A DNA stretch of 64,000 nt, taken from assembly GCA_050950285.1 (NCBI GenBank), contig JBMNHG010000002.1:248296-312295 (forward strand). Reading direction: 5' to 3'. Position numbers and translations under genes: made by a program. The notes beneath the pieces are model-generated. The model saw nothing but the letters and a program-made list of their open reading frames with translations, was not told the DNA's origin and did not search any database. Position 1 is the stretch's first letter, and each line of letters begins with the position of its first letter. Below, piece after piece: positions 12,459 through 59,198 of this stretch. The stretch is from Kiritimatiellia bacterium (GTDB lineage: Bacteria > Verrucomicrobiota > Kiritimatiellia > RFP12 > JBMNHG01).

Positions 12459-13338
12459 ATGAAATTAACCAGTCCGTCCCAGATTTCCGCCTGGTGTGCG
12501 GCGCATGGTTTCAAGCCGAACCGCATGCTGGGGCAGAATTTCCTCATCGACCAGAACACCCTCGATTTTCTGGTGGATGCGGCGGAACTGCGTCCGGGAA
12601 GCCGCGTGCTGGAGGTGGGGCCGGGATTGGGGGTGGTCACCGAAGCCCTGATCGAGCGTGGCGCCTGCGTCACGGCCGTGGAAAAAGATCCGGTGCTCGC
12701 CGAGCGCCTTCCCGAGGCCCTTGCCGAGGTTCCGGAGGGCCGCCTTCGCGTGATTCCGGGCGACATGCTCGAACAGGATCTCGACGCCCTGCTTGCCCCT
12801 CCCGGATTCGACGTCTGCGTGTCGAACCTCCCCTACTCTTGCGGAACGCGGATTCTGATGGACCTGGCGCGTCATCCGCTCGCACCCTCCCTTCTGGTGG
12901 TGACCGTGCAGCTCGAGGTGGCCGAGCGTTTCGCGGCGCCTCCGCGCCATCCGGCCCGCGGACTCGCCAGCGTCTGGCTGCAACGCCTGTACGACATCGA
13001 AATCGCCCGCGTCGTGAAACCCACCTGCTTCTGGCCGCGACCGGAAGTCTCCTCCGCCATCGTGCGCCTGCGACGGCATGGCCGCGAGCCGCTGACCCCC
13101 GTCGCAACGGAACGTTTCGAATCGCTCGTGCGCCTCGGCTTCACCCATCGCCGCAAGCAGCTGGCAACAACCTTGCGTCATGCGCCTGCGCCGTTTACCA
13201 TGTCTCCCGAACACACCGCCGCCTTCCTTTCTTCCCTCGGACTCTCGACCCTCGCGTCCGTCCCGAAGAGCTTACCGTGGCCGAGTGGCGGTCCCTGGCC
13301 GCCGAAAGCCTTATTCACTCCCTCCCGAACCCGTATGA
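12459..13338 (+). CDS. rsmA: 16S rRNA (adenine1518/1519-N6)-dimethyltransferase RsmA/KsgA (two apparent frameshifts near the 3' end)
   Basis: [11 protein letters not shown]-binding [12 protein letters not shown] and NLPY motifs. The C-terminal tail (..[17 protein letters not shown]..) continues in a second frame, and the stop lies in a third frame, overlapping the ahcY ATG (ATGA at 13335-13338). Confidence 0.8.
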
Positions 13339-14730: not shown

Positions 14731-14780
14731 TCCATCGTTCTCCTGTATCCTGTATCCCCATCACGAAAGGAACCTCCCCC

Positions 14781-15101
14781 ATGCCCGCCGAACTCACCGC
14801 CTCCACCTTCCAAGACGCCATCTCCCGGGGCGTCGTCCTCGTCGACTTCTGGGCCCCCTGGTGCGGCCCCTGCAGGATGCAGGGCCCCATCCTCGAACAG
14901 GTCGCCCCCGCCTTCGAAGGCCGCGCCACGATCGCCAAGCTCAACATCGACGATCCTTCGACCCAGAACATCGCGAAAGACCTCGGCATCCGCAGCATCC
15001 CGACCCTCGTCCTCTTCAAGGACGGCGCAGAGGTGGAGCGCTTCATCGGCCTCACCCGCGCCGACGCCCTCCAGGCGGCGATCACGTCCGCGCTGGCATG
15101 A
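14781..15101 (+). CDS. trxA: Thioredoxin
   Basis: WAPWCGPCR active site in a 106-aa product. Confidence 0.85.
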
Positions 15102-37967: not shown

Positions 37968-37992
37968 GGGCGCATCTCCGTTTTGCTACCGG

Positions 37993-39249
37993 CTACGCTG
38001 GGACTGCTGCCTGGGCGCAGCAGTGGTGGAGCTCCCCGTTGACGTACCATATGTACGCCTTCAGGAATGACTCGAGCCCGACTGCGGACCAGAACTGGCC
38101 GCACCGCTTGAAGCGGTTCTGCAACTGCGAACAAAGCGATTCGACCGCGCCGCTTCCGATGGGGCGCCCCAGCCTGCGCTGCCTGAGGTAGTCCATGTGG
38201 TCCTTGTGCTTCATGAAATATTCCGTCTCGCGTTGCACGGCCTTCGCGTCCCAGCATCCATCGCCTTCGTGCGCCTTGAGGATATCGAGTAGCGTCTTCC
38301 CCCCGTACCGCTTGAGCTTCCTGCAACGCTCCGAAAGCCATGCCTTTCGCGCGGGCTCGTCGTCCGGGAAGAGCGCCGCGGCGAGCGCGCCGAGATGCTC
38401 GGTGGCGTGGTAGTAGTCCAGCGTCCCTTCGGCGATGGTGGCGAACCTGTCCTCGAAGATGTTCCAGAGGTAGGTGCCGCCGTCCATGACGATGTAGACG
38501 AACTTCGCCTGCATCATCCCCATCCGCCGCGCCTCGAATTCGACCTTCCGGCCGAAGTCGACCGGATCCGTGCCGGCCGGCATGCAGACTGCGTGCTTGG
38601 TGACAAGCACGCGCCTTCCCCCGCTTGTCTCCGCGGCGTGGGCGAGCTTGAAGATTGTCGCCGACTTCATCTCGCGCCATTCCACGCGCTCGGCGGCTCT
38701 TGGGTTGCGCTTCCCCCATCCCGCCCCGCGGTGCCGGGCGAACCAGCCGTCCATCATGATCACCAGCGTGTCCTCGCTCCCCGCCGCCTCCTCGCAGAGC
38801 CGGGGAAGCTTCCCTTCCTCGCAGCGCCCGGCGATGTCCCTGACGACGTCCATGACCTTGTCGTCGCTGACGGGGCACCCCCATTCCCTGCAGAGCTTCG
38901 AGGCTTTCTCGAACGATCCCGTCTCCATGGCCGTCGCCGCGATCCTCATCTCGAACGCGGGGGAGACGCAGCCGCGCCTGCCGCCGAAAAAGCGCAGGCG
39001 CATCGGCGTCTCGTACCGACCGGACGACCGGCAGAGCCCGTTCTTCACTTTCAGTTCAACCGGCCCGAACCCGGTCGCGACCCTCATGCCGATCGTCCTG
39101 GTCTTGACGAGCGGCTTCCCGTCGCTTCCCTCGGAGGGGGTGCTCTCCGCGAGCCTCTGCAGGTAGTCTTCGTACTCCCTGCGGGCCAGTTCCATGTGTT
39201 TGCGCTGGATTGCCTTTTCGGCTTCGATCAGGTTTTTGCAGGTTTCCAT
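37993..39249 (-). CDS. Transposase, ISKra4-family-like
   Basis: 418 aa with a characteristic ..LDYYHATEHLGA.. region and an RNaseH-like DDE core. Lies inside the IR-bounded element. Confidence 0.7.
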   Translation of the reverse strand: METCKNLIEAEKAIQRKHMELARREYEDYLQRLAESTPSEGSDGKPLVKTRTIGMRVATGFGPVELKVKNGLCRSSGRYETPMRLRFFGGRRGCVSPAFEMRIAATAMETGSFEKASKLCREWGCPVSDDKVMDVVRDIAGRCEEGKLPRLCEEAAGSEDTLVIMMDGWFARHRGAGWGKRNPRAAERVEWREMKSATIFKLAHAAETSGGRRVLVTKHAVCMPAGTDPVDFGRKVEFEARRMGMMQAKFVYIVMDGGTYLWNIFEDRFATIAEGTLDYYHATEHLGALAAALFPDDEPARKAWLSERCRKLKRYGGKTLLDILKAHEGDGCWDAKAVQRETEYFMKHKDHMDYLRQRRLGRPIGSGAVESLCSQLQNRFKRCGQFWSAVGLESFLKAYIWYVNGELHHCCAQAAVPA

Positions 39250-39259
39250 TGTCTTTCCT

Positions 39260-39315
39260 TCCTTTCGCGCTTGATACTATAGCATTCGAATGCTATAGCA
39301 TCAAGCGCGAAAGGA
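39260..39315. repeat. 56-bp near-perfect palindrome between transposase and accessory ORF
   Basis: tcctttcgcgcttgatactatagcattc|gaatgctatagcatcaagcgcgaaagga, with a single mismatch (a39276/c39299). The right arm contains the AAGGAG Shine-Dalgarno (39311-39316) of the accessory ORF. Confidence 0.7.
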
Positions 39316-39323
39316 GAAACCAG

Positions 39324-39620
39324 ATGGAAAAAGACACCTCAGGCGATGAAGAGAAGATTCGTGCCATCAAAGAGCAGATCGTGGCTCTCGGGCCCATGCG
39401 CCCCGGACGGCTCAGCGTGCAATACCAAAAGCCCAAGGAGAAGGCCGGGCCGTTCTACCAGATCAGCTACACGATCCAGAAGCGAAGCCGCTCGGACTAT
39501 GTACGCGAAGCCGATCTGGAACGTGTGAAGGCAGAACTCGAAAACTACCAGACGTTCAAGCGCCTTTGCGAAGAACTGGTTCTGGCCTCGCTGGCACTGG
39601 CAAAGTCGCGACAACGCTAG
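39324..39620 (+). CDS. IS-borne accessory ORF (99 aa), unknown function
   Basis: Good SD 8 nt upstream. Charged, coiled-coil-like protein (MEKDTSGDEEKIRAIKEQIVALGP...). Inside the IS boundaries. Confidence 0.45.
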   Translation: MEKDTSGDEEKIRAIKEQIVALGPMRPGRLSVQYQKPKEKAGPFYQISYTIQKRSRSDYVREADLERVKAELENYQTFKRLCEELVLASLALAKSRQR

Positions 39621-39683
39621 CCCCTCAAAACCTGCCCCAGTCTTCCCGATGGACGAGGTGGGGAGCAAAACGGAGATGCGCCC

Positions 39684-39692: not shown

Positions 39693-39800
39693 TTTTGTGC
39701 TTGACGCCTTTCCACCTCCTTCGCATCATGGCGGCATGGATGGGGGTCGGCTCGTCCCGCCGCCCCCCGGCATGCGGCAACGGTCTTTGCGGGAGTCTCC

Positions 39801-41693
39801 ATGGCGGGTTGTTTCCGAAAGTTGCATACGCTCCGCTCCGCGCGGCTCGCCGCGGTGTCGGCCGGCGCCGGGCTCTCCCCCGGCGGCACGAACACCCTCC
39901 GCCTGCTCCGCGGTTGCTTTTCCGTCAGCCCGCCGCCGCTCGACGGGGCGGACGCCGCGCGGCTTGCCGAGGCGGTCCGGGCCAAGCCCGCCTGTTCCGC
40001 CGCCCTGTGCGGCCTGCTGTCCGGGCGCCGCGAAGGCTGGCTGGCCGAGGACGTCCGGGCGCGGCATCTGCTGGACTCCGGGAAGGCCTCCGAGGCCGCC
40101 GCCGCGTGGGAGGCCATGCTCCGCCGCCGCCGCGGCCCGCCCGACCGCATCGCCTTCGCGCGCTGCGAGGCGCTGGCCGCCTGGAAGCCGGGGAAGGGCA
40201 TCGAGGCGCTGGAGGAGTGGCTGGAGCGCTACAAGGACTCGCCGCTGCGCGAGCGCGCCGCCGCCTGCCACGCCCTGCTGCCGGCCCGCCATGGCGACCC
40301 GGCCGAGGCGGCATCCCGCCTCGGGGCCTTCCTCGGGGAATACCCCGGCAGCCGCTTCGCGCCCGAGGCCCGGCAGGCGCTGGCCAGGGCGCGCGGCGCA
40401 TCGGACCGGCTGGAACAGCTCCGGGCGGCGCAGGCCGCCAAGGAGGAGAGGCGCCGGCGCGACCCGGCGTCGGCCGACCTCGAACGCGCCGAGTCGCTCC
40501 TCTCCCAGGGACGCCACGCCGACGCCGAAAAGGCCTTCCTGTCCTTCCGCGACCGCCGCCGCCATCCGCTGTGGGGGCGCGCCTGGCATGGCCTCGGCAA
40601 AGCCCGCCACGCCCGGGGCGACACGCAGGGCGCTCTCGCCGCCTGGGACGACCTCTGGCGGCGCTCGCTGGCCGACACCAACGTCCTGTGCGCCGCCCGG
40701 GCCCGCCGCGCGGCGGGCGACGCCTGGCTCGAGGATCTCGGCGAGCCGGCCCGCGCCCTGAAGGCCTACGACGAAGCCGCGTCCCGCACCGACTTTTCCG
40801 ACCCCGCCTTCGACCTCAACCGCGGGCTCGCCCTGCTGATGCTCGGGCGCGCCCCGGAGGCCGCGGCCCTCTTCACCCGCCGCCGCGACGCGTCCGCCGG
40901 CGACAAGGCCGAGTTCCTGCGCTGGGACCGCCTCGCGAAGGAGTGCGCCGCCGGACGCCTGGCGCCGCCCCCGCGCGGCCTGCTCCCCGACCAGCGCCGC
41001 GCCCGTACCGACCTGGCGATGGCCGACGCCCTCCTCGCGGCCGGCGAGCCGGCCCGCGCCCTGAGGCTCTACCGCCGCGCGTCCGCCCCCCTGGCGGGCC
41101 ACGAGGGGGCCGACCGGTGCGACCTGGGCATGGCGCTCGCCCTGGCCGCCCTCGGCCGGCCGAAGGAGGCGCTCGCCCTCTACGGGCGTTTCACGGGCGA
41201 ACACGGGCGCAGCCCGCTGGCCGCCGGAGCCCTGCTCCGCGCCGGCACGCTCTGCGCATTGCCCCGCGTGAACGACTTCAAAGGCGCCTGCCAGTGGTTC
41301 GCCCGGGTCGTCGAAAACCACCCCGGCACGCGCGAGGCCGAGGCGGCGGAGTTCTATGCCGCCAAAAGGCTCCACGACCCCTTCGACGACGACCAGCGAA
41401 ACGACCGTCCCCGATTCCCGCATGGCAAGCCCGTCCATCCCGACATCACGCTCTCCCGACATCACGCTCCATTGGGAGGCGGGGAACCCGCTCGCCCTGC
41501 TCGGGGGAACCACGGTTTACACGAACAAAATCGAGATCGACGCCGGGGAGGTCGACTGGCCCCTGGATTACGCCGTCATCCCGCGTCATTCGGCCATTTC
41601 CTTCGCCATCGCCGCCGAGGGCCAGGCCGCCGAGGGCGGCAAGGCGGTGGACATCGTCCACGGGCGCGTCGTCGACGTGGACCTCGACGTTGA
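39801..41693 (+). CDS. TPR-repeat protein; probably the N-terminal part of a single TPR-trunk-toxin gene interrupted by a 16-bp duplication
   Basis: TPR-like helical repeats throughout. The last real residues (..KPVHPDITL) match the N-terminus of module 2 (KPVNPHITLHW), and the tail after nt 41455 is out-of-frame read-through. Removing one 16-bp repeat unit fuses this frame to 41422..43458. Confidence 0.6.
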   Translation: MAGCFRKLHTLRSARLAAVSAGAGLSPGGTNTLRLLRGCFSVSPPPLDGADAARLAEAVRAKPACSAALCGLLSGRREGWLAEDVRARHLLDSGKASEAAAAWEAMLRRRRGPPDRIAFARCEALAAWKPGKGIEALEEWLERYKDSPLRERAAACHALLPARHGDPAEAASRLGAFLGEYPGSRFAPEARQALARARGASDRLEQLRAAQAAKEERRRRDPASADLERAESLLSQGRHADAEKAFLSFRDRRRHPLWGRAWHGLGKARHARGDTQGALAAWDDLWRRSLADTNVLCAARARRAAGDAWLEDLGEPARALKAYDEAASRTDFSDPAFDLNRGLALLMLGRAPEAAALFTRRRDASAGDKAEFLRWDRLAKECAAGRLAPPPRGLLPDQRRARTDLAMADALLAAGEPARALRLYRRASAPLAGHEGADRCDLGMALALAALGRPKEALALYGRFTGEHGRSPLAAGALLRAGTLCALPRVNDFKGACQWFARVVENHPGTREAEAAEFYAAKRLHDPFDDDQRNDRPRFPHGKPVHPDITLSRHHAPLGGGEPARPARGNHGLHEQNRDRRRGGRLAPGLRRHPASFGHFLRHRRRGPGRRGRQGGGHRPRARRRRGPRR

Positions 41694-43458
41694 CGCCAAC
41701 CACGACGGCAAAATTGATGACGCCGACGAGCCCTTGGAGGTGGACCCCGGCGGCTATGTGTGCGTCGGAACCAACAACCTGACGCCGGTCACGCTCAAGT
41801 TGGAGCCCGTCGGCCTGCCCGGCAAACTGACCCTCTCGGCGACGATGGGTGGGGACCGAATCCGCATCTGGAAAGACGCCGGGCGCGCGACCGAGGTGAT
41901 ATTGACCAATGGCTGCGCCCAGGTGGCTCCCGGCACGCTCTACGTCGAGGGGGTCACCAACAGCGCCGCCCTCCGCGACGTGGAACTCCGCCTCGAATAC
42001 GACGAGAACCCGGAGGGCCAGAATAACCGCCTCTTCAAGTGCGAGGACAGGGTGAAGCTGACGGCCGTGAAGGTGGACTTGGATATCGACTCGGACAACA
42101 ACGGAGCCATCGAAGAAGCAGACGAGGCCCAAGAACTTACCGAACCGGGCAAGTTGATCTATCTGAACCATGATGACGACAACAAGAACGACATAGAGGA
42201 CAAGGCCGAGAACACTGCAATTGTCACTGATGAAGATGACCTCCAACCAATCAAGCTTGCATTTTCACCAAACATCGCTGGCGGAAAGATAATCCTTGCT
42301 GCTCCAAGTGGTGGGTCTCGGATTCAAGTTTGGGGAAACTCCACAAAAGGTGTTGCGAGTGAGAAAGTTGACCTGCCGAAGACGTGGACAATAGGCACTG
42401 ACGCTGTCCCTGCAACACTCTATGTCGAGGGCATCGACCCCGGTGCTGCTCAATTGAAATTGGCTTACGAGGTTAACTCGGTCGAAGTTTGCAAGGACGA
42501 GATCAAGTTGGGCATCGTCAAAATTGAGTTCAAGGAACGGGGCGATACAAAATACGGTTATGATAACGGGACCGTTGACAACAACCCTGTTCCCAAATCG
42601 GTTGACACTCCCCCACAGAAGTATGACTGGGTAAACGTTGACAGAGACAACAAGACGACAGATGTGGACGTAGAGATTACTCCGGCGTCGTATGCCAAGT
42701 ACGTTAATTTTATTAGCAGCGATGACGCAAAAACCACATGCAATCCTGTCGCAGCAACTGCAAATCCGCAGAAATTGACCATAACCGGCACAGCCTCGGG
42801 GACATCCCATGTCCAGACGCGACTTGGAACCACAACAGGTGCTAAAGGCACTCGGTTGAATGTGGCCTGTTACAAGCTGGCAGCCCTTAATGTCAATTTC
42901 TATAAGGTAAGTGCCACGGGGCTTGCGCCTGATGGTACCACGGCGGAACAATTCGAAAGTGGCGCGAATGCGTTCCTCAAGCGGGGTGTCAGTGAACTAT
43001 CACTGACCGACAACGGCACCACAATAACTAACTACGATGACAACGCAAATTCTAAACTAGATATCGATGCAACGGCGGGGGATGGCGGAAGTGAATGGGT
43101 CAAGGTGACAGCGGCACTAGGGGCTCCTGTTGGGATGAAACTGCTTCATGTAAAGGCCTTGCGCGTTAACATCGGGGGAACATGGGTCAACGCAACAGGC
43201 TTACGCTATGGTGATTGGACGCTGGTTTCTGACGAGTCAACGAGCAAAGTCAGAACTGTCGCCCATGAGATGCTTCACAAGCTAGGACTGAAAGATACAG
43301 GCCCCAGTGGGAGCAACACTGCAAACATCATGTACTATATGAGCAATGGCACAAAGTACTTTGTGGGGTATTTCAAAGTGGAAGGCGTTCAGACTGGGTC
43401 TGGCACGTCTTACACCCCAAAACAACACGAGCTACAGTGGGAAATGATTTATCGGTGA
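41422..43458 (+). CDS. Polymorphic-toxin-like module 1: conserved trunk + C-terminal HExxH (zincin-like) region
   Basis: Trunk ..GKAVDIVHGRVVDVDLDVDANHDGKIDDADEPLEVDPGG...LTLSATMGGDRIRIWKDAGR..EVILTNGCAQVAPGTLYVEGVTNSAALRDVELRLEYDENP. Reiterated ~100-aa modules. C-terminal ..VAHEMLHKLGL.. (43264-43278). Confidence 0.65.
   Translation: MASPSIPTSRSPDITLHWEAGNPLALLGGTTVYTNKIEIDAGEVDWPLDYAVIPRHSAISFAIAAEGQAAEGGKAVDIVHGRVVDVDLDVDANHDGKIDDADEPLEVDPGGYVCVGTNNLTPVTLKLEPVGLPGKLTLSATMGGDRIRIWKDAGRATEVILTNGCAQVAPGTLYVEGVTNSAALRDVELRLEYDENPEGQNNRLFKCEDRVKLTAVKVDLDIDSDNNGAIEEADEAQELTEPGKLIYLNHDDDNKNDIEDKAENTAIVTDEDDLQPIKLAFSPNIAGGKIILAAPSGGSRIQVWGNSTKGVASEKVDLPKTWTIGTDAVPATLYVEGIDPGAAQLKLAYEVNSVEVCKDEIKLGIVKIEFKERGDTKYGYDNGTVDNNPVPKSVDTPPQKYDWVNVDRDNKTTDVDVEITPASYAKYVNFISSDDAKTTCNPVAATANPQKLTITGTASGTSHVQTRLGTTTGAKGTRLNVACYKLAALNVNFYKVSATGLAPDGTTAEQFESGANAFLKRGVSELSLTDNGTTITNYDDNANSKLDIDATAGDGGSEWVKVTAALGAPVGMKLLHVKALRVNIGGTWVNATGLRYGDWTLVSDESTSKVRTVAHEMLHKLGLKDTGPSGSNTANIMYYMSNGTKYFVGYFKVEGVQTGSGTSYTPKQHELQWEMIYR
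41439..41470 (+). repeat. 16-bp tandem duplication (cccgacatcacgctcY x2) at the TPR/trunk junction
   Basis: Units at 41439-41454 and 41455-41470, with 15/16 identity. Deleting one unit gives an uninterrupted ORF 39801..43458. Confidence 0.7.
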
Positions 43459-43475
43459 GGAAAGGTGCTTTACAG

Positions 43476-44417
43476 ATGAGAACGTTCTTGGCATGTTTTA
43501 CTTTCTTCGCGTTCCAGGCCTTGGTGCGCGCAGAACCTGGCACTGTCGCAGAGGTCCTGAATAACCTCCGGAAGGGAGATGCCCGGGGGTTGCGGACTGA
43601 TCAGTACACAAATGCGGCGAGTGCCGTTGCCTTTCTGGAGAACATCGGTGTTCTGGAAGACGAGAAGATCCGACTGAAGGTGGTGCGGTTCTCGGCAACG
43701 CTGATGCGTCGGGCGGCAAGAGCGGGCTCGCAGCAGGACGAACAGAACGTAGAAGCCTTCACTGGCCAGATGGTGAAGATCCTTAAGGCTGATCCATCTA
43801 GGCGTATCCGGGAAGAGGCCGCGAAGAGTCTTCTGGAAATGGTCTCCCCGCGTGTTCTCGATCGCTATCACGCCGTTCTACGTCTTGCGGCCGAGGAAAG
43901 GAAGGACATCGCTACGCTTCTTGTCTGCGCATCACTGCATTCCTGCGATGCAACGTGGTTGGCGGAATTGGTGCGTACAATGAAACCGGAGTCCCGGATG
44001 GAGAAGCGCCAAATCGACAGCATTCTGGCGCGGTGCGGGGATCAGGCTGCAACAGATCGTCTCATTGATGAAGCAGGTCATGCGCAGGGAATGAGCGATG
44101 TTGAGATTGGTGAGTTGGTCGCCGCTTTGGCCTTTGTGCCTTCCGAACGGGTTCAGATGTTTCTTGGACTAGGTCTTCGCTCTGACACTGTTGTTTCACT
44201 ACCCGGGGGAGGCGCGATTCCCTGGCGCAACTGCTGTGCCCGTTCTTTGGTCCGAATGCACAGGCACGACGAGAGTTTTCCTGTAAAGAGGGACGACTAC
44301 ATGTATAGTGACGATGAGCTTGACAGAATCGAACAGTGGAGTGTGGTTACTCTCGGCATTGCCCCCCGTAGTGGAACACGGAGGAGCTTGAAAGTGACAC
44401 CAGGTATTCATCAGTAG
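43476..44417 (+). CDS. Signal-peptide partner protein 1 (candidate immunity; HEAT/armadillo-like repeats)
   Basis: Starts 18 nt after the module 1 stop. Signal peptide (MRTFLACFTFFAFQALVRA), alpha-helical repeat composition, and AT-richer DNA than the core genome. Confidence 0.55.
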   Translation: MRTFLACFTFFAFQALVRAEPGTVAEVLNNLRKGDARGLRTDQYTNAASAVAFLENIGVLEDEKIRLKVVRFSATLMRRAARAGSQQDEQNVEAFTGQMVKILKADPSRRIREEAAKSLLEMVSPRVLDRYHAVLRLAAEERKDIATLLVCASLHSCDATWLAELVRTMKPESRMEKRQIDSILARCGDQAATDRLIDEAGHAQGMSDVEIGELVAALAFVPSERVQMFLGLGLRSDTVVSLPGGGAIPWRNCCARSLVRMHRHDESFPVKRDDYMYSDDELDRIEQWSVVTLGIAPRSGTRRSLKVTPGIHQ

Positions 44418-44531
44418 TGGCACAGGCATAGGTTCGCGGCAAGAGCGAAGCACCCGGAACCCTCTCTACTGGGTGTCCCCTCCGCTCTAGTTGTCTTTGG
44501 CTCATGCAATGATTTCATTGTCGTCTTTCAA

Positions 44532-46253
44532 ATGAACATCTGGCACAAAGAATCTGTAAAACCCGTGAATCCGCACATCACGCTCCACTGGGCGGGGGTG
44601 CGCGAACTGTGCCTTCTGCACGGGGACGGGACGTTGTTCCCGAACGGCGGGCAGATCGACTCGCGCGCCGTTCCCTCCTGGCCCCTCCGCTTCCGCGTCG
44701 GGCCGCTCGCGCCGACGACGGAGTTCGTGGTGCGCCTTTTCGGCGAAGCCGACAACGTGACGGGCGAGAAGGCGGTGGACATCGTCCACGGGCGCGTCGT
44801 CGACGTGGACCTCGACGTTGACGCCAACCACGACGGCAAAATTGATGACGCCGACGAGCCTTTGGAGGTGGACCCCGGCGGACTGGCCTGCGTCTGCACG
44901 AACAAACTGACCCCGATCATGCTCACGCTTCAGCCCGCCGGACTGACCGGCAGGCTGACCCTCTCGGCAACGATGGGAGGGGACCGAATCCGCATCTGGA
45001 AAGACGCCGGGCGCATGATCGAGGTGGTATTGACCAATGGCTGCGCCCAGGTGGCTCCCGGCACGCTCTACGTCGAGGGGGTCACCAACAGCGCCGCCCT
45101 CCGCGATGTGGAGCTGCGCCTCGAATACGACGAGAACCCGCCGAACCAAAACAACCCCCTTTTCAAGTGCGAGGACAGGGTGAAGCTGACGGCCGTGAAA
45201 ATAGATTTTGTCACTCCCGCCGGTGATCCGGTAAATGCCGCCGTGCAGTCGGGCGACGGGCAAAACGAATTCACCTACTCGACAGCCACTCCCGGCGTTC
45301 TGACGATGAACCTGAAGGCGCACGTCACACCGAGCGGTATCGCCAACCAGATCAAGGGCCTATGCCTGTTTACGGTTGATATGATCGCCGGTTCCACCTT
45401 GGCTTGGGGCTCGTCGAATCCTAACGGCAAGCCGACAGCGAACGGTGATGACCTGTTGGCGACGGTCACGTTCACCGGTTTGCCCGCGAACAATTCCGAC
45501 TTCGGGGCCAAGAAGGCCGCTATCCACTTCAACGCCAGCAAGCAGGATGAAGCGAACTACGAAGTATTCTTTCCCCGAGATGTGGCGAACAATCCTGGTG
45601 GTTCTGATCCAAATTGGTTCTACTACTGGGGTCAGGTTTATGTGAATGCGAACGTTCAATATGTGGCCGCTGCGGCGGCCGGACGCGTACCTGCCATGAC
45701 AGGCTGGACGTACAACTCTGTACCAAGCAAAACTCGCATTGAAATCGGTAGCGGACATCCCGCAAAATACAAATCCTATGGCATCGGAGAGGAAGCGTCG
45801 GGCATTGATCGCTACATAATGACGGGAATACATGAGGAGAAGCATGTGGCACAGATTGCTGCCGCAGATGCTCTTCTGCCTACCAGCGGTGCCGATTCCT
45901 TTCGCTTCGGTTGGTCATGGAATCAATCCACTCATAATCATTGGACAAAGGGGCCTGATGGGCAATGGGGTGTTGCCGGAGTTGATGATGACGGGAATGG
46001 TGTAGTTGATGACGCAGCTGTGGCACCACCCTTTGAACCTGGGAACGGTGACGACATCAGCCTCGACCGCGCAACATGGCCGTGGTGGCCAAATACGTGG
46101 ACACTGCCCGGCGGAGTTTACGCCACCATCCATCCCATTGAAGGCGAGGCCGTCAAGGCTGCGGATGACGCAATGAATGAAAACGACTATGCGCCCCAAG
46201 ATTGGGGCAAGCCCGGCAAGAACCACAAGACGGTAAACAAGTGGGATGATTGA
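44532..46253 (+). CDS. Polymorphic-toxin-like module 2: same trunk, unrelated C-terminal region with HEEKH
   Basis: Nucleotides 44773-44883 differ from 41640-41750 by 1 nt. The trunk diverges after ..FKCEDRVKLTAVKIDF. C-terminal ..GIHEEKHVAQ.. (45831-45845). Begins only 10 aa before the trunk homology (MNIWHKESVKPVNPHITLHW). Confidence 0.65.
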   Translation: MNIWHKESVKPVNPHITLHWAGVRELCLLHGDGTLFPNGGQIDSRAVPSWPLRFRVGPLAPTTEFVVRLFGEADNVTGEKAVDIVHGRVVDVDLDVDANHDGKIDDADEPLEVDPGGLACVCTNKLTPIMLTLQPAGLTGRLTLSATMGGDRIRIWKDAGRMIEVVLTNGCAQVAPGTLYVEGVTNSAALRDVELRLEYDENPPNQNNPLFKCEDRVKLTAVKIDFVTPAGDPVNAAVQSGDGQNEFTYSTATPGVLTMNLKAHVTPSGIANQIKGLCLFTVDMIAGSTLAWGSSNPNGKPTANGDDLLATVTFTGLPANNSDFGAKKAAIHFNASKQDEANYEVFFPRDVANNPGGSDPNWFYYWGQVYVNANVQYVAAAAAGRVPAMTGWTYNSVPSKTRIEIGSGHPAKYKSYGIGEEASGIDRYIMTGIHEEKHVAQIAAADALLPTSGADSFRFGWSWNQSTHNHWTKGPDGQWGVAGVDDDGNGVVDDAAVAPPFEPGNGDDISLDRATWPWWPNTWTLPGGVYATIHPIEGEAVKAADDAMNENDYAPQDWGKPGKNHKTVNKWDD

Positions 46254-46274
46254 TTCTTTTCGGAGGAGAACATT

Positions 46275-46952
46275 ATGAATAATCGATTAGTGACAATGTT
46301 GCAGGCGATTGTGTTGATGGTTATATTGCTAACCACAGGTCGAGTGTTTGCTGGAAATGCCGAAGTGGAAAACATAGACATGGTTGATACGAAACAGTTG
46401 CTTTCAGCGCAGACGATGGAGCGGAGTCAGGCGCTGGACAGGTTGACTGCAAAATATCGCGAGGTCTCGGCGTCGCTCTTAAAGACACTGGAGGAGGCCA
46501 AGACCGAGTTTAGAACGGATCGCCGTTATCATTCGCCTCTTCACTCCGCCATACTGGCAGTCGATGCATGGCAGGTGATTGATGCCGATGCGCTTCTCCT
46601 TTCGATGGTTGACTACGAGTTAGATCCAAGTTCCTTGCCATTGGGAATGGATGTACCAGGCGACTATTTTTATCCCGCAGCCAAGACGTTGGTCCGCTTG
46701 CGCGTGGACATGGCGAAAGTGGAACGAGCGCTTGGAGCCACAGAGGACCCGAAAGCGCTGAGGATATTGACATGGGTGTTACTTGAACGAGGAGAAGACG
46801 TCGAGAAGGCGAAGATGGCTTTAGCCGATGCAAGCGGCAAAAGTCATGGGGCCACGGAAAAGCGGAATATCAGCGAAGCGCTAGAGCTGCTCAACAACCC
46901 TTCGGAGTTGTTGCCGATGCCGTCGAGGGGTGACCATCCTTCATCGAAGTGA
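46275..46952 (+). CDS. Signal-peptide partner protein 2 (candidate immunity)
   Basis: Starts 22 nt after the module 2 stop. N-terminal MNNRLVTMLQAIVLMVILLTTGRVFAG. Low GC, no similarity to partner 1. Confidence 0.55.
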   Translation: MNNRLVTMLQAIVLMVILLTTGRVFAGNAEVENIDMVDTKQLLSAQTMERSQALDRLTAKYREVSASLLKTLEEAKTEFRTDRRYHSPLHSAILAVDAWQVIDADALLLSMVDYELDPSSLPLGMDVPGDYFYPAAKTLVRLRVDMAKVERALGATEDPKALRILTWVLLERGEDVEKAKMALADASGKSHGATEKRNISEALELLNNPSELLPMPSRGDHPSSK

Positions 46953-47186
46953 CTGCTTTACGGCCTACGCACCTGACACGCCGCGTGCTGGAAGAAAGGC
47001 CACGCGGCGCGCCAGGTGCTCCGGCCTTGCTCCGGCGCTATCGCGCTTCCGGGGCACCTCCGCGCTGACGCGCTCCGGTGGTGGACTCGCTCACACGTTG
47101 CCCTTTCCGGCGCACCCCCGTGTTGCCTCCAGGCCGACACCTTGCATACATTGACAAATGGAATGACGGATTGATACGCTGTCCGC

Positions 47187-48941
47187 ATGGAATCAAGCCT
47201 CTGCATGAATGGCGCGAATGAACGGACGGCTTGGGAATATGCCGTGTGTAGCGGCCAAGACAACCACGACGACGAGCCGCCGGAGGAGGATCCCGGCGGC
47301 TACGCCTGCGTCTGCACGAACAAATTGACGCCGCTCAATCTGAAGGTGCAACCAACCGACCTGCCCGGCAAGGTCAGACTCTCGGCGACGGGCGGCCAGC
47401 GCATCAGAGTCTGGGAGAACGCCGGCCGCACCGGCGAGGTGGTATTGACCAATGGCTGCGCCCAAGTGGCGCCCGGCACGCTCTACGTCGAGGGGGTCAC
47501 CAACAGCGCCGCCCTCCGCGACGTGGAGCTGCGCCTCGAATACGACGAGAACCCGCCGGGCCAGAGCAACCCCCTCTTCAAGTGCGAGGACAGGGTGCGG
47601 CTGGTCGTCATAAAAGTGGACTTAGACATTTGGAACGGGGGAGCCGATTTGGACAACGGTGAGGCTGCCGGCCCCCAGGGGGCACAGGTCCCGGACGCCG
47701 ACGAGGAATCCGTCGGAGCATACATCCTCGTCAACTGGGATGATGACGACGGTGACGGCAAAATCAATGGCACCGGAAGTGGCTGGATATCCTTTCCAGT
47801 GCCAGATCTCGACGAATCAACGGCCATTACCGACGAGGATAATCTAGCGCAGTTGAAACTCAATCTTACGCCGTTACTTGATCTTGGAACGGTTGAACTG
47901 GAAGTGAGTGGTACCGATGCGGGCAAGATCAAGCTCTGGACCGAGTCAACCAAAGGAACGGTGGTCACACTCACATCCAACAAGAAGACATGGAACCTAT
48001 CAAACCCGACGCAGAAGAGCGAGTTTCAGAACTTAATGGCCAACAGCCTGTGGATCGAGGGAGTTGACGCGGGATCGGGTGAACGGGCTGCAACCTTTAC
48101 ATTGTGTTTCAAGGACAGTGGTGGAACTGAAATCTGCAATGACGTTAACAAGGCAACGTTGGTGATGCTGAATCTTGCGAACGTCGCTGGTAGAGAGGTT
48201 GACAATGATGCTCTTGCGGAGAGAGGGCATACGGCAGTAGTCGGTCGCTATGATGGCAGCTGCACCAAGGCCGATTTGCTCAATGCCGCGCACTATACAC
48301 TCTATGAGGCAGATGGGGGTGGAGATTGGGCCGGCACAGAACCAGGACCACGTGAAGCCCTTCTTACTCATGTTACGGCCAGACCAGGCCGCGAGTTTTT
48401 TGGTTCATTGTCACCCTTCTTGACGTCGTACTACAACAGCTCGTCAATGCCTAACACAGCGCAGGGTTACAGAACTCGTTTGAAGATATTGCTGGTGGCC
48501 AGGCGCTTGATTGATAACACCGCCAGCATAGGATATACAAAGTTCAACGCTGTCCTACCCGGAAACTGGAACGGCAATTTGGGCACGATTACAGATCTCC
48601 GATGCGACGGGTTCGTCGAAGTCTGCTATGAGTGGTCGGGCGTCAATTCGTGGGGAAGGATCGCAGGAGGTGGAGCCCGGTACAGCATCCTCGTTGCAGG
48701 GAATCAAGATGACCATAATGAATGGGTATGGGGAGACGTCCCGCAAGATGGAGCGAGTGACTTCTGGGCATGGCTGATGCCGATAACACAGATCGGATAT
48801 GCCGACACCTATATTGACAGCCATTATCCCCCATACACCAACGGTGACTTCGACTATACGGCGAACAATTTTGAAGGGACTTTCTGGGAGAGTGCCTTTT
48901 CCTCTCAACAACTCGTCATGCCAACGCTTTCAAATCCGTGA
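47187..48941 (+). CDS. Polymorphic-toxin-like module 3: 5'-truncated trunk + third unrelated C-terminal region
   Basis: Trunk homology starts abruptly at ..DNHDDEPPEEDPGGYACVCTNKLTP (the ~80 aa found in modules 1/2 are missing). ..VVLTNGCAQVAPGTLYVEGVTNSAALRDVELRLEYDENPP is identical to copy 2 at the protein level. The C-terminal half is unique with no HExxH. Confidence 0.6.
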   Translation: MESSLCMNGANERTAWEYAVCSGQDNHDDEPPEEDPGGYACVCTNKLTPLNLKVQPTDLPGKVRLSATGGQRIRVWENAGRTGEVVLTNGCAQVAPGTLYVEGVTNSAALRDVELRLEYDENPPGQSNPLFKCEDRVRLVVIKVDLDIWNGGADLDNGEAAGPQGAQVPDADEESVGAYILVNWDDDDGDGKINGTGSGWISFPVPDLDESTAITDEDNLAQLKLNLTPLLDLGTVELEVSGTDAGKIKLWTESTKGTVVTLTSNKKTWNLSNPTQKSEFQNLMANSLWIEGVDAGSGERAATFTLCFKDSGGTEICNDVNKATLVMLNLANVAGREVDNDALAERGHTAVVGRYDGSCTKADLLNAAHYTLYEADGGGDWAGTEPGPREALLTHVTARPGREFFGSLSPFLTSYYNSSSMPNTAQGYRTRLKILLVARRLIDNTASIGYTKFNAVLPGNWNGNLGTITDLRCDGFVEVCYEWSGVNSWGRIAGGGARYSILVAGNQDDHNEWVWGDVPQDGASDFWAWLMPITQIGYADTYIDSHYPPYTNGDFDYTANNFEGTFWESAFSSQQLVMPTLSNP

Positions 48942-48958
48942 AAGGTAGGAAACAAATC

Positions 48959-49735
48959 ATGAGGAAGACTCTCTTACTCTTGTGCGCCTCGCTCGCATTT
49001 TCCTTGGTGGGGCTTGCAAATGATGATGCTTTGTTGAAAGCTCTTGCAGCCGGAGATCGCACGGCCAGGAAGAATGCGGCAATGCAGATCGAGCAACGGT
49101 CAGTGAAAGACCTGCTCGCTCTTGCGGAAGAAAGCATTAAGAGCGAGAGCCTTGAACCTTCGGCAGCCATCTATGTCTTCCACCAGATACTGTGTGTTGC
49201 CTCTGAAAAGGGATTCACTGTTCATGATGCCGCTGCGTTGATCAGAATGCCTGGTGCTTCCGAGTTCAGGCAGGCACTTATAGACTGGATTAGAGAATTT
49301 GGAACCAAGAGAATTAATTCCGACGACGCTGCTGGAATGCTTCCTGAGATAGATGCGTATTTCCAGTCCAAGCAGGAGACTTTGCGATTCAGAACAACTG
49401 CACACAAACTGTCACGCGATCTGGCATGGAAGATCCGCGTCGACTTGAACGAGAAGGAGAACATGCAACCTGATCAGCGTGAGAAGATGAAGCAACTTCT
49501 CTGTGGGCATATCGATCACGTCTGCCAAGTTGTTGCCGACAGCACCGAAGCTGATGAAGCTGTTGAGGTATTTGCAGGTTGCGTCCCGTACTATCGCCTC
49601 TATGCTCGCGAGGGACTCTATCAAGATGGCGACCTTCAAGATGCGCTTCAACAAGCTGCCAATCAGAGGAACCGTAGCCCAAAGACGAAGAAGGCTATTC
49701 AGGCAATGATCGCCGAGCTGTGGAAGGCAGAATAG
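48959..49735 (+). CDS. Signal-peptide partner protein 3 (candidate immunity)
   Basis: MRKTLLLLCASLAFSLVGLA signal peptide; lies in a 3'-terminal overlap/abutment with module 3; low GC. Confidence 0.55.
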   Translation: MRKTLLLLCASLAFSLVGLANDDALLKALAAGDRTARKNAAMQIEQRSVKDLLALAEESIKSESLEPSAAIYVFHQILCVASEKGFTVHDAAALIRMPGASEFRQALIDWIREFGTKRINSDDAAGMLPEIDAYFQSKQETLRFRTTAHKLSRDLAWKIRVDLNEKENMQPDQREKMKQLLCGHIDHVCQVVADSTEADEAVEVFAGCVPYYRLYAREGLYQDGDLQDALQQAANQRNRSPKTKKAIQAMIAELWKAE

Positions 49736-49920
49736 GGCCGGACATATTCAAAACTATCAACCAAGGTTATCGTTTCAACCCCGGTTTTGGCCGTTTTCGA
49801 GCGTTTTGCTTCAAAAACGGTCGAAAACGTCGTTTTTCACACGCTCCGTTTTCGAAAAGCGCTTGGTGACAAACCTACCCCGTTTACAAGTTTTCGAGCC
49901 CTTCCTTATAACGCGCGGCG

Positions 49921-50997
49921 ATGTATCTCAAATGTCACTCGCGTCACAAAGACGGCAAAACCCACCACTACTGGAACGTCATGGAGCGTGTCGGCGGCGC
50001 CGACGGGCGTCGCTTCGAGCGCCAGGTGCTCTGTTTGGGAGAGTTGGGCGTCGAGGAGAAGCGCGACTGGGAGGCTCGCATCGAGAGGGTTTCAGGCGGC
50101 GGGCGAAGACCCGGGCGACTGCTTTTCGAGCTGCCCGAGGAGCCGCCCGACGAGCGCCTCGCCGAAGACCGCGCGCCATCCAGGCCCGAAGCCGTCCGAA
50201 TCCGCCTTTCAGGGTTCTCGCTGAAGAACCCGCGCCAGTACGGCGGCTGCTGGCTGTTCTGCACGCTCTGGGGGAAGCTCGGGCTCGACGCGTTCTGGCT
50301 TCCGCTCCTGCCGGCCTCGCGCAAGGGCACCCCGCGGGTTGACGTGCTCAAGATCCTCTGCGCCAACCGGCTCCTCGACCCATCGAGCGAATGGCGCGTC
50401 CACCGGGAGTGGTTCAAGCGCTCGGCCATGGGGGACTTGCTCGGCTGCGGGGAGGAGCTCTCGGCCAAGGACACGCTCTACCGCTACCTGGATCTTCTCC
50501 TCGAGCACAAGGACTCGTTCTTCCAGCACCTGCGCGGGCGCTGGACGGACATGTTCAACGCCTCGTGCGACGTGCTCCTCTGCGACCTAACGAGCACGTA
50601 CTTCGAGAGCGACCCGCCCTTCCCGCCGGGGGACAAGCGCATGCACGGCTACAGCCGGGACCATCGCGGCGACTGCGTGCAGATCGTCATCGCGCTGGTG
50701 ATCACGCCCGACGGGCTCCCCGTGGCCTACGAGGTCATTCACCACAGCCGGGAATCGCGCATCGAAAGCCACGTCTTCGTCGCCTTCATCGCCTACAGCC
50801 TCTCGGCGATCCAGATGATCGACGTGCACTTCCCCATCGGCGACGCCCGGGATTTGGTCTTCTCCCGCTACACCACGCCGGAGGCGGACCAGAAGCTGAT
50901 CCTGGACGCTCTCGGATGGGAGCTTCCCCCGCAGAACCCGCCGAAAATCACGACCGGAGGGAAAGTCGAAACTGGCCGTCTGGCGACAGACTTTTAA
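49921..50997 (+). pseudogene. IS1634/IS4-superfamily transposase, C-terminally truncated remnant
   Basis: Hallmark N-terminus MYLKCHSRHKDGKTHHYWNVMER and the first DDE block LLCDLTSTYFE. At 358 aa it lacks the distal catalytic region of ~550-aa IS1634 transposases. Confidence 0.55.
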
Positions 50998-52562: not shown

Positions 52563-52778
52563 GGAATCCCTTTCATGCGGGAAAACCGCAGAAAAAATAT
52601 CGAACAAAAAGATTACGCGCACGCCACCCGCAAAGCAAATCAAATCAAAAGAGGCTCTTGCAAAACCGCGACCCGGCCGGACGACACAGAGGTCGTCCCT
52701 CCATCCGGCCCGCCGGGGACGGCGGTCCCCAGGCAGGGCGTCCCTCCCGATCCGAGGAGCGGCGTGTCCGGACGGCCC

Positions 52779-59045: not shown

Positions 59046-59198
59046 GGTGGTATCGTACCCCATTCCCGCAATGCACCGCAATCCGATAATTGGCCTGTAC
59101 GGTTCACGGGATGGAACCCTGCTTGCAAGGCGGGAAATCCAGGGCCATCACACGACATTGGTTTGACACCCGGAAGAGCATGGGGTACCTTTCCGCCC

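Follow-up and report, generated by a model that had tools for sequence, protein, structure and literature searches.

The locus described here probably consists of three toxin-tip and immunity cassettes of a Sec-dependent polymorphic toxin family of the PVC group. In the window, by which we mean the whole stretch of DNA that was analysed (64 kb, from a Kiritimatiellia-type genome), three cassettes of a tip and an exported partner are joined by a common Ig-like trunk. The three ORFs were recovered at the coordinates given by an earlier sequence-only reading, and their direct repeats were confirmed. Of the features that generally define polymorphic toxin systems (Zhang et al. 2012), a conserved trunk with hypervariable C-termini, a downstream partner that varies with the tip, and orphan cassettes together with tip replacement were all found; a trafficking signal was found in relatives, while the three modules of the window lack it. 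The polymorphic-toxin-like array that had been proposed therefore stood in its trunk, variable tips, co-occurring partners and orphans, but not in its view of copy 1 as a delivery-competent gene. The array comprises the following elements:

41356/41422-43458, + strand: ORF call of module 1
41456..41633, + strand: pre-trunk of copy 1, a predicted first Ig-like domain (PDITLHW...; alignment A2; model pLDDT ~50)
41634..42086, + strand: trunk copy 1, direct repeat, β-sandwich
42087..43458, + strand: tip 1, with a second β-sandwich repeat (to ~42531), a β-rich region and a metzincin-like C-terminal domain
43476..44417, + strand: partner 1, 313 aa, Sec leader MRTFLACFTFFAFQALVRA/EPG
44532-46253, + strand: ORF call of module 2, 573 aa, without signal peptide; pre-trunk, trunk copy 2, Ig-like domain, catalytic domain
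44762-45214, + strand: trunk copy 2, 89-90% identical to copy 1
45207-45521, + strand: Ig-like domain of module 2, part of tip 2
45522-46253, + strand: predicted catalytic domain of module 2, HEEKH at 45831-45845, conserved Glu in PIEGEA at 46134-46151
46275..46952, + strand: partner 2, 225 aa, leader ...LLTTGRVFA/GNAE
47187-48941, + strand: ORF call of module 3, 584 aa, without signal peptide; truncated trunk copy 3, second β-sandwich repeat, tip 3
47266-47629, + strand: trunk copy 3, truncated, direct repeat, 76-84% identical
48177-48941, + strand: tip 3, invariant His in RGHTAVV at 48222-48242, invariant Cys in LRCDGFVEVCYE at 48597-48632
48959..49735, + strand: partner 3, 258 aa, leader MRKTLLLLCASLAFSLVGLA/NDD

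The trunk common to the three ORFs spans ~450 nt, at 89% and 83-84% identity, and contains exact runs of 92, 56 and 50 nt; a search of the 64-kb window gave no copies beyond these three. Its identity is a mosaic. The description of the trunk as nearly identical holds for sub-blocks, since some 45-nt windows are 100% identical in all three copies and the protein block LTNGCAQVAPGTLYVEGVTNSAALRDVELRLEYDENP shows no difference among them, but not for the trunk as a whole (76-90%). The alignment offered as an example was out of register by 5 nt: positions 41640-41750 match 44768-44878 with 2 mismatches, as against 95 when set beside 44773-44883. Identity drops abruptly to background at ~42075, 45203 and 47618, respectively, and the tips switch directly after the junction motif ...LEYDENPxGQxNPLFKCEDRVxLTVxK, with the copy 1 junction reading ...RVKLTAVKVD at 42049-42078. 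Copy 2 indeed starts 10 aa ahead of the homology, and copy 3 lacks the start of the trunk, although the missing part amounts to ~92 aa and not to ~80. Trunk copy 1 carries a Ca-binding-like motif (VDLDVDANHDGKIDD, 41677-41721) as well as LYVEG. Structure models of medium confidence (mean pLDDT 64.7; 73-84 for the domain of trunk copy 1) present the trunk as two Ig-like domains that resemble the N-terminus of protein-arginine deiminases. No sequence match was obtained for trunk, tips or partners in Pfam, NCBIfam or PDB, in agreement with the suggestion of a polymorphic effector family not yet described. The β-sandwich repeat of the trunk occurs 11 times in the giant protein P0038, the C-terminus of which is a Pfam Toxin-deaminase domain (E=8.9e-17, above the cut-off).

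Beyond the junction the three modules diverge as abruptly as had been claimed; however, the tips are not altogether unrelated, as tips 1 and 3 both open with the second β-sandwich repeat and share 46% identity across a stretch of 317 aa that takes in the trunk. Predicted zinc-peptidase motifs are present in tips 1 and 2. The metzincin-like domain of tip 1 (42832-43458) contains HEMLHKLGLKD at 43264-43296 and NIMYY at 43324-43338, and the pattern HExxHxxGxxD plus Met-turn is conserved. Homologues of tip 1 include P0002-P0005 and P0009; in alignment A3 both His residues, the Glu and the Met do not vary, and five homologues have either D or H as the third ligand. Similarity to Pfam Reprolysin_4 was sub-threshold (E=0.046), and a PDB profile search gave no match. 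For tip 2, an alignment of 13 sequences (A5) shows no variation at H104, E105, H108 and E207; Pfam and PDB searches returned no match, and its 220 homologues include named matches in Verrucomicrobia (including Opitutales) and Polyangiaceae MAGs. Tip 3, for which sequence searches were without match, has invariant His18 and Cys143 (alignment A4; homologues P0036, P0037, P0015 and P0019) and may resemble permuted NlpC/P60 enzymes. Its structure model (pLDDT 30) yielded no fold, and the enzyme assignments therefore come from short motifs and one sub-threshold Pfam match. Neither tips nor partners gave a sequence match to known toxin or immunity families.

Close behind each module, as the sequence-only reading had it, lies a gene that differs from module to module and starts with a typical Sec leader. 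The partners begin 17, 21 and 17 nt past the modules at ATG starts (43476, 46275 and 48959; GTG starts would overlap) and are mutually unrelated in sequence. For partner 1, weak similarity to HEAT_2 and alphaRep (E 0.019-0.19) makes a HEAT-like protein of helical repeats probable, and partner 2 is 50% identical to the product of L011 5360-6004. A signal peptide was present on every partner examined in the window and in relatives; partners in other arrays or relatives include HEAT or ankyrin repeat proteins, and some orphan partner genes are kept without an adjoining enzyme. Tips and partners are compositionally foreign. The reported AT-richness was borne out by GC contents of 50-55% for tips and 51-55% for partners versus 65.3% for the window and 63-66% for the trunks, and their GC3 is 0.54-0.70 versus ~0.87-0.92 in neighbouring genes.

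The claim of one full-length gene, in which copy 1 is joined to a TPR region, had to be abandoned, as a 16-nt duplication breaks the frame between the two:

39801..41439, + strand: TPR segment of copy 1 (frame 0 ORF 39801-41693; 77% GC)
41440..41471, + strand: 16-nt tandem duplication, CCGACATCACGCTCTC / CCGACATCACGCTCCA, read directly in the sequence

The TPR segment matches Pfam TPR_16 (1.7e-13) and others, with sub-threshold NCBIfam matches of the YbgF/BamD type. BLASTP comparison with P0051, P0013 and the L011 TPR protein placed its homology at aa 216-718 of P0051, a full-length relative; the N-terminal signal peptide and the first TPRs are absent from it. The duplication, which shifts the frame between TPR segment and module 1, is present neither in L001 nor in any paralogue, and in silico deletion of one of its copies gives an unbroken ORF of 1213 aa (39801-43458). 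At least one indel in a housekeeping gene of the window is probably an assembly error, and the frameshift could therefore be an artefact. Frame-repaired copy 1 nevertheless still lacks the N-terminal 215 aa, including the signal peptide, and the 195-aa middle domain of its full-length relatives. Copy 1 is thus no delivery-competent gene, and all three modules of the window are signal-less derivatives. No N-terminal hydrophobic leader was found on any of the window's three modules, and as they stand they could therefore not reach the compartment of their partners.

The borders of the array are marked by mobile and repeated elements:

37968..39683, no strand: insertion sequence, 117 nt upstream of the first array ORF
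37993-39249, - strand: transposase inside the insertion sequence (Pfam UPF0236, 8.4e-8)
39324-39620, + strand: DUF6788 gene inside the insertion sequence (Pfam DUF6788, 1.7e-12)
39697..39855, + strand: shared array leader, covering the first 18 codons MAGCFRKLHTLRSARLAA
49770..49865, no strand: right-flank repeat of the array, 90% identical to L006 7139-7237
49921..50997, + strand: putative transposase-like ORF, 358 aa, right border of the array, occurring in L001-L003

The insertion sequence ends in 23-nt terminal inverted repeats (22/23 matched) with a 9-bp target duplication, GTGGTGAGG. It was found in the source genome only and is missing from metagenome contig L001, which is otherwise 99.9% identical. 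The array leader is 98% identical to L006 7231-7388, which precedes another array, and the L017 array (P0007) begins with the same leader; in L006 the counterpart of the right-flank repeat directly adjoins the copy of this leader. The 358-aa ORF gave no match in a Pfam search and appears transposase-like by eye on its translation. The same population harbours at least four arrays of this type (window, L005+L017, L006 and L016).

Comparison with relatives links tips and partners further. In all, 34 homologues were obtained, and 26 proteins with the same trunk junction fall into at least 13 C-terminal types, so that the C-termini vary in relatives, as had been anticipated, rather than being conserved. 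In searched sequences the proposed toxin family was confined to PVC-group bacteria (Kiritimatiellia, Lentisphaeria and Planctomycetota). Intact relatives possess a signal peptide, a TPR region, a middle β domain and two Ig domains modelled as PAD-N-like, and a variable domain forms their C-terminus. Their TPR region is either fused or encoded by a separate, translationally coupled gene, and a signal-peptide-bearing partner gene comes next. Sec-type leaders are carried by the full-length relatives P0051 and P0030/L035 and by the L011 TPR protein.

Downstream genes co-vary with the tips, also in distant genomes. The pair of tip 1 and partner 1 recurs in L009 (64% and 41% identity) and L010 (60% and 31%), in both cases over the full length of the partner, and that of tip 3 and partner 3 in L014 downstream of the tip homologue P0036 (63% and 32%, partner at full length, E=1e-39). 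Starting from the partner side, with 15 metagenome loci encoding a relative of partner 2, the tip 2 C-terminus was found directly upstream in 13. Other partners accompany divergent genes of the tip-3-like and tip-2-like kinds; the genes downstream of the tip-2 relatives P0191 (56% identity) and P0236 (44%) have no detectable similarity to partner 2. Tip 2 is also found behind Big_2, cadherin-like, LysM, TSP3 or RCC1 regions or a bare signal peptide, tip 1 behind other Ig arrays, and tip 3 as a trunk-less cassette (P0036) in an integrase-rich island. The swapping of tips and partners that the sequence-only reading had proposed to look for in related genomes was observed as a same-locus replacement in two strains of a gut Lentisphaerae-like species, L011 and L035. 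On one side the two are 99.76% identical over 3301 nt, and on the other 97.7% identical over 2951 nt. The segment in between is non-homologous and begins where the Ig part of the tip gives way to the catalytic part; L011 has there another catalytic half together with a new gene for a signal-peptide protein of 279 aa, and its former partner-2-like gene persists downstream. Taken together, these comparisons show the conserved trunk and domain junctions at work as homology arms, so that tips and partners are exchanged jointly.

In the favoured interpretation as a Sec-dependent polymorphic toxin family, the effector would cross the inner membrane via Sec and its C-terminal enzyme would attack a target in the cell envelope. 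The putative enzymes comprise zinc peptidases, Cys-His peptidase or amidase-like domains and lipase-like domains. The tips would be toxic, and the cognate partner would bind and neutralise its enzyme in the periplasm as an immunity protein. Since its modules lack an export signal and copy 1 is defective, the window array itself is most likely a store of displaced cassettes, the tips of which may recombine into an expressed gene elsewhere, and the intact exported partners may still protect against the toxins of neighbours. A more far-reaching version, which we regard as improbable, is a self-contained antibacterial delivery system of the PVC group that dispenses with all known contact-dependent machines (T4-T7SS, CDI). 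Envelope-degrading enzymes would be conveyed by the Sec-exported TPR module and the middle and PAD-N-like Ig domains from the producing cell, through the outer membrane of a neighbouring cell and on into the periplasm of the latter, and the signal-less orphan arrays would act as recombination library and immunity island. As had been noted, no secretion apparatus was seen in the window, nor was one seen next to intact loci.

The lack of contact-dependent delivery machinery in these places would also suit secreted degradative hydrolases that serve nutrition or host interaction and not attack on other bacteria, protected against by periplasmic inhibitors in the producer in the style of AprA/AprI or serralysin/Inh, with the arrays as paralogue expansions. 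The tips resemble peptidases or lipases, the partners are predicted to be periplasmic, and the full-length forms have the ordinary Sec signals and Ig-like spacers typical of secreted enzymes. However, signal-less orphan cassettes with a near-identical recombination trunk are unusual for nutritional enzymes, and the joint replacement of catalytic domain and partner between conspecific strains, with the old partner kept, is the signature of a conflict system. In addition, P0038 joins the same trunk repeat to a nucleic-acid deaminase toxin domain, and orphan partner genes survive without a neighbouring enzyme; we consider this explanation unlikely. It is similarly doubtful that the window array is a non-functional relic made of decaying pseudogene fragments, which survive only by chance and are rearranged through IS activity and illegitimate recombination. 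The three modules and three partners are long unbroken ORFs with conserved catalytic-type residues, the signal peptides of the partner genes are still intact, four metagenome contigs encode the 573-aa module 2 protein without any difference, and L002 and L004 are 100% identical to the window where they overlap it, although copy 1 is truncated, internally deleted and frameshifted and modules 2 and 3 begin within the trunk region without signals. Decay would further account for the IS insertion and 1.5-kb deletion polymorphisms among strains >99.9% identical and for trunk-to-partner fusion genes in a sister array (P0029 / L006 13307-14884), but orphan arrays of this kind are maintained in CDI, Rhs and Maf loci (Zhang et al. 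2012, PMC3482391).

Variation of a surface protein, with an Ig-like stalk and a cassette-varied head for adhesion or for evasion of phage or immunity and with the downstream genes as chaperones or assembly factors, would fit the common homology arm of the cassettes. The tips, however, bear catalytic-type motifs (HExxH, Cys/His and GxSxG) and not signatures of binding domains, and each is accompanied by its own unrelated partner across phyla-level relatives, unlike what a general chaperone would show; this explanation appears very improbable.

In gut, sediment and digester communities, Kiritimatiellia and Lentisphaeria are members that have received little study and are for the most part uncultured. 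The searchable literature yielded nothing on how they compete and no report of a comparable system in these phyla. The locus and its relatives define a modular effector family (TPR, middle domain and a trunk modelled as PAD-N-like Ig domains), at least 13 unannotated C-terminal domain families and several unannotated families of exported partners, without a match in Pfam, NCBIfam or solved structures. Conceptually the finding changes nothing, since polymorphic toxins with immunity proteins are well known and so are orphan arrays. Should the tips prove to be toxins that target the envelope, they would represent new antibacterial enzymes with new specific inhibitors, and the strain-level swap in a human-gut species, if true, would indicate live competition within the gut.

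Among known systems, Neisseria MafB/MafI and CDI cdiA-CT/cdiI form orphan arrays with several modules of tip and immunity gene per locus. As in these arrays, the downstream modules start inside or just before a homology block that serves as recombination arm, and the tip switches abruptly past a conserved junction motif; unlike them, the first gene of the window array is itself defective and the immunity candidates bear signal peptides. The junction motif also differs from the VENN-type pre-toxin motif of CDI, and Pfam searches of the modules, the TPR ORF and the scanned neighbours revealed no TPS domain, FHA repeats, VENN motif or CdiB-like gene. Pfam likewise gave no RHS, PAAR or VgrG matches as features of Rhs/YD-repeat systems, and DUF1020 (MafB-N) was not found, with no Pfam match for any module. 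The periplasm-acting T6SS pairs Tae/Tai and Tle/Tli combine hydrolase effectors with cognate periplasmic immunity proteins. By analogy, the putative peptidase/amidase-like and lipase-like effectors here would be matched by cognate periplasmic neutralisers, and a candidate immunity gene is kept as an orphan as well (the L011 case). Sec signals and long Ig/TPR bodies set this family apart from T6SS effectors, and no T6SS genes (Hcp, VgrG, PAAR and others) were present among the scanned ORFs or beside intact loci.

The likeness to PAD1-4 and PADI6 is limited to the N-terminal Ig-like fold, at 10-16% sequence identity and in a model of medium confidence. Pfam PAD_N and PAD_M gave no match, and unrelated tips take the place of the catalytic α/β-propeller deiminase domain; membership of the locus in the protein-arginine deiminases was rejected, as only the domain fold is in common. 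AprA/AprI is a pair of a secreted metalloprotease and a periplasmic inhibitor, and here too a putative zinc peptidase gene is followed by the gene of a signal-peptide-bearing candidate neutraliser. However, AprA/AprI pairs are single conserved loci without the recombination trunk, orphan cassettes and strain-level replacement of tip and partner seen here.

Sec/T2SS-dependent polymorphic toxins were catalogued by Zhang et al. (2012; Table 1, PMC3482391), where Lentisphaerae appear only for other toxin types. None of the pre-toxin, toxin and immunity Pfam families of that catalogue matches here, and the trunk differs in being, according to the models, a PAD-N-like Ig pair. The catalogued toxins are mostly nucleases or deaminases with cytoplasmic immunity, whereas all immunity candidates here are exported. 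What the two have in common is a signal peptide as the sole trafficking mark (here in relatives), a repeat body, with TPR among those listed, hypervariable C-terminal domains traded by recombination with stand-alone cassettes, and an immunity gene (here a candidate) directly downstream.

The array consists of a TPR ORF and three long ORFs (modules 1 to 3) that share a trunk and end in divergent C-terminal regions (tips 1 to 3), each with a small signal-peptide gene (partners 1 to 3) directly downstream. The features of the locus are as follows:

37968-39683: complete insertion sequence (inverted ends of 23 nt; 9-bp duplication of the target, GTGGTGAGG)
39.8-49.7 kb, + strand: array of ORFs (ORF listing)
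39801-41693, + strand: TPR ORF (ORF listing)
41356/41422-43458, + strand: long ORF, module 1 (ORF listing)
43476-44417, + strand: partner 1, ORF from ATG downstream of module 1
44532-46253, + strand: long ORF, module 2 (ORF listing)
46275-46952, + strand: partner 2, ORF from ATG downstream of module 2
47187-48941, + strand: long ORF, module 3 (ORF listing)
48959-49735, + strand: partner 3, ORF from ATG downstream of module 3

Trunk copies 1 (41634-42086) and 2 (44762-45214) share 89-90% DNA identity, and copy 3 (47266-47629) is 76-84% identical to both. The identity of the shared trunk is mosaic, with longest exact runs of 92 nt (copies 1/2), 56 nt (1/3) and 50 nt (2/3) and one 45-nt window identical across all three copies, and it falls to background within a single window at ~42075, 45203 and 47618, respectively. 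A tblastn search of the window found only these three copies. The partners are mutually unrelated, and all of them carry a Sec signal: the N-terminus of each runs from a basic residue through a hydrophobic stretch to an AxA-type site. Thus, the ORFs, repeats and leaders bear out the sequence-only reading of three ORFs with a common trunk, an abrupt switch of the tip and a distinct signal-peptide partner each, and the pattern is real and far beyond chance. The pair of trunk segments cited there as nearly identical was 5 nt out of register; the correct register gives 2 mismatches. A scan for promoters and terminators returned counts equal to those in shuffled sequence.

The lower GC content noted for the tips and partners was likewise recovered: it is 50-55%, as compared with 63-66% in the trunks, 65.3% in the window and 77% in the TPR segment, which makes the locus a three-way compositional mosaic. 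The composition of the cassettes is foreign, the GC3 of modules and partners being 0.54-0.70 vs ~0.87-0.92 in neighbouring genes. In 300-nt windows the TPR segment (39750-41250) reaches 76-82% GC, next to tips of ~50% in a window of 65%.

To elucidate the nature of the trunk, a profile of the trunk and the preceding Ig-like domain (pre-trunk) was searched against 1.84 billion representatives. The search matched 1162 proteins at E<=1e-3, of which 422 reached E<=1e-10; about two dozen among the matches listed span the whole profile, and the others are confined to its second half, which is a β-sandwich bearing 'LYVEG' and a DxDxDxNxDG motif. The trunk models as a PAD-N-like (PAD, protein-arginine deiminase) pair of Ig-type domains. 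Proteins of up to 5486 aa carry as many as 11 copies of this type of β-sandwich, and tips 1 and 3 each open with one additional copy. The best profile match, P0038 (2941 aa), has 11 repeats and ends in the Pfam domain Toxin-deaminase (62 bits vs a cut-off of 29.6), a recognised polymorphic-toxin domain, here of the BURPS668_1122 type. The trunk has the look of a stalk or spacer that also offers a convenient homology arm, rather than of a dedicated secretion domain.

Neither the trunk, the three tips nor the partners gave a significant match in Pfam (strict and at E<=10), NCBIfam or PDB sequences, using single sequences and profiles; matches to GCN5, integrin and IleRS had E values of ~0.1-1 and were dismissed as chance. 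Tip 1 contains HEMLHKLGLKD followed 10 residues on by NIMYY, with the H, E, H and M invariant and D or H at the third-ligand position in homologues. This motif reads as a metzincin signature; the match to Pfam Reprolysin_4 is weak (E=0.046). Tip 2 has an invariant HExxH and a Glu ~100 residues later, and its unit of ~350 aa recurs in 220 homologues, preceded by a wide range of N-termini, LysM among them. The LysM fusion is seen in P0223, and in P0068 the unit stands behind RCC1 and TSP3 repeats. Tip 3 has an invariant His and Cys; we presume a resemblance to permuted NlpC/P60 enzymes, which is a candidate lead, and an AlphaFold model of its catalytic domain from a 5-sequence alignment had a pLDDT of 30. 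Partner 1 shows weak HEAT or alphaRep similarity only. Since every partner is predicted to be exported, we infer that the tips act in the cell envelope.

Tips and partners are inherited as pairs. Two Lentisphaeria-type contigs encode homologues of tip 1 (64% and 60% identity), each followed by a homologue of partner 1 (41% and 31% identity over its full length). The closest homologue of tip 3 (P0036, 63%) is a trunk-less cassette in an integrase-rich island of an 8.8-Mb contig, and the gene after it is a homologue of partner 3 (32%, E=1e-39); more divergent tip-3-like genes, which differ in the last ~90 aa, have different signal-bearing partners. In the contig of P0036 (L014, 1-17320), this trunk-less cassette with its partner lies between two tandem copies of a module consisting of an HTH gene, a primase and two integrases, which suggests that an integrative element carries the cassette or has captured it. 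For tip 2, profile-profile comparison revealed no homology between partner 2 and the genes downstream of two distant tip-2 relatives (L018 and L020), and the pairing was therefore established from the partner side: in 13 of 15 metagenome loci encoding a partner-2 relative, a tip-2 C-terminus lies directly upstream.

The most telling case is the allelic replacement of one such pair, seen in two contigs of a single gut species, L011 and L035. Upstream of a non-homologous stretch their identity is 99.76% over 3301 nt, and downstream of it 97.7% over 2951 nt. A canonical tip-2 catalytic domain forms the end of the L035 toxin, and a partner-2 homologue comes directly after it. L011 has a different catalytic half, which starts exactly at the Ig/catalytic boundary ('YEVFFP') and is followed by a new 279-aa signal-bearing gene, with the old partner-2 homologue further downstream. 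This is the pattern that toxin-immunity loci typically show, in which a replacement leaves the old immunity gene in place. The expected co-variation of partners with tips is therefore found in the recurring tip 1 and tip 3 pairs, in the 13 of 15 tip 2 loci and in this swap. Likewise, the tips are variable and not conserved single-copy regions, with 13 unrelated C-terminal types (last 200 aa) among 26 proteins with the same trunk junction. Read by eye, these include HExxH types, Cys/His types (...GQCGAWA...NHxVV...YDPSYG and ...YNCIAWS...) and a GYSHG lipase-like type.

For the window proteins, matches were found among MAG proteins labelled Kiritimatiellia and Lentisphaeria. A scan of 185,579 species genomes found the trunk at five loci, all in PVC MAGs, a count that rests on two exact peptide patterns and is thus an undercount and no measure of abundance. 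The architecture is modular, and intact relatives carry Sec signals in two layouts. In one, exemplified by P0051 and P0013, all parts are fused in a single protein; in the other (L011-L013), the gene of a signal-bearing TPR protein overlaps by 4 nt a second signal-bearing gene comprising middle domain, pre-trunk, trunk and tip.

Copy 1, which had been considered a full-length gene, is frameshifted. Its TPR ORF and module 1 lie in different frames, with a 16-nt unit tandemly duplicated at 41440-41471, and removal of one unit restores an uninterrupted ORF of 1213 aa. The full-length relative P0051 (1445 aa) consists of a signal peptide, ~700 aa of TPR, a middle domain, pre-trunk, trunk and tip; compared with it, two parts are missing even from the repaired copy 1, namely the N-terminal stretch that includes the signal peptide (residues 1-215) and the middle domain with 'PPFRVTVPSVDVDW' (residues 719-913). 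The possibility of a programmed frameshift at the duplication was considered, but nothing was found in support. A conserved housekeeping gene at ~14.14 kb, encoding S-adenosylhomocysteine hydrolase, is likewise frameshifted, reflecting either a broken essential gene or an indel error of the assembly. As the assembly may therefore contain indel errors, the duplication at 41440 needs confirmation. The frame of the hydrolase changes at ~14135-14145 inside ORF 12459-15101 (880 aa); this ORF is an artefact of read-through, in which KsgA and a thioredoxin are also joined.

The metagenome contig L001, which shares 99.9% identity with the window, is without the 16-nt duplication and without 39856-41357, the TPR segment. 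It also lacks the 1716-bp insertion sequence at 37968-39683, which argues for a recent insertion; this element carries a UPF0236-type transposase and a DUF6788 gene. L001 could be a chimeric assembly joined through a repeat common to the L017 locus, but window-specific SNPs flank its junction on both sides, and it is accordingly taken, with some residual doubt, as a true allele. Whether or not the duplication is genuine, an export signal is absent from all three window modules, and the array appears to be a degenerate, export-incompetent form of a polymorphic toxin-immunity-like family.

At least three further arrays occur in the same population (L005+L017, L006 and L016), with truncated modules, signal-peptide HEAT or ankyrin partners and one trunk-partner fusion. 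In this fusion (P0029; L006 13307-14884), a middle and pre-trunk region runs directly into a signal-peptide-bearing partner-type protein (...IVHGRVVKCFLFAVCLLAVPAFAEDSN...), apparently because a deletion fused a toxin trunk with an immunity-type gene. The flanks of the window array (39697-39855 and 49770-49865) are contiguous in L006 (7139-7388), and the array leader, whose 18-codon start is MAGCFRKLHTLRSARLAA, is likewise found at the head of the L017 array. The arrays seem to have been inserted into, or to be bounded by, a common repeat, and this flank repeat and leader might show how entire arrays are copied or relocated. Directly upstream of the window array, an 879-aa ORF (35059-37698, - strand) is atypical in composition (55.5% GC, GC3 0.67) and may be part of the same foreign island; it has no Pfam or NCBIfam match, and by eye its N-terminal half is hydrophobic and looks multi-pass. 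A 2100-aa protein (52779-59081, - strand) with CotH, lamin-tail (LTD) and Fn3-associated domains, according to the Pfam list of its L001 counterpart, is unrelated to the array, and a radical-SAM/BATS gene (51060-52643) adjoins it.

Taken together, tip variability, pairing and the L011/L035 replacement indicate that the interpretation as a polymorphic-toxin-like array was broadly right. In such a family, the tips would be envelope-damaging enzymes and the partners their cognate periplasmic immunity proteins, with the trunk and domain junctions probably serving as recombination sites. The window array would then act as a store of displaced cassettes, with partner genes that may remain protective. 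The literature searched, of incomplete coverage, does not describe such a system for Kiritimatiellia, Lentisphaerae or Verrucomicrobia. The locus thus broadly fits a polymorphic toxin-immunity-like family with a putatively undescribed trunk, tips and partners. This family opens up unannotated enzyme and inhibitor families and a poorly known phylum, and the locus offers no new principle unless the delivery route proves new.

The trunk lies outside the CDI, Rhs and MafB families, as had been supposed, and membership of the locus in these or in the T6SS effectors was rejected, since it has none of the domains that define them. It appears to work in the manner of the Sec/T2SS-dependent polymorphic toxins (Zhang et al. 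2012, PMC3482391) and is laid out like MafB or CDI orphan arrays. With the periplasm-acting effector/immunity pairs of T6SS it shares exported immunity candidates, and with PADs the trunk has only a domain fold in common.
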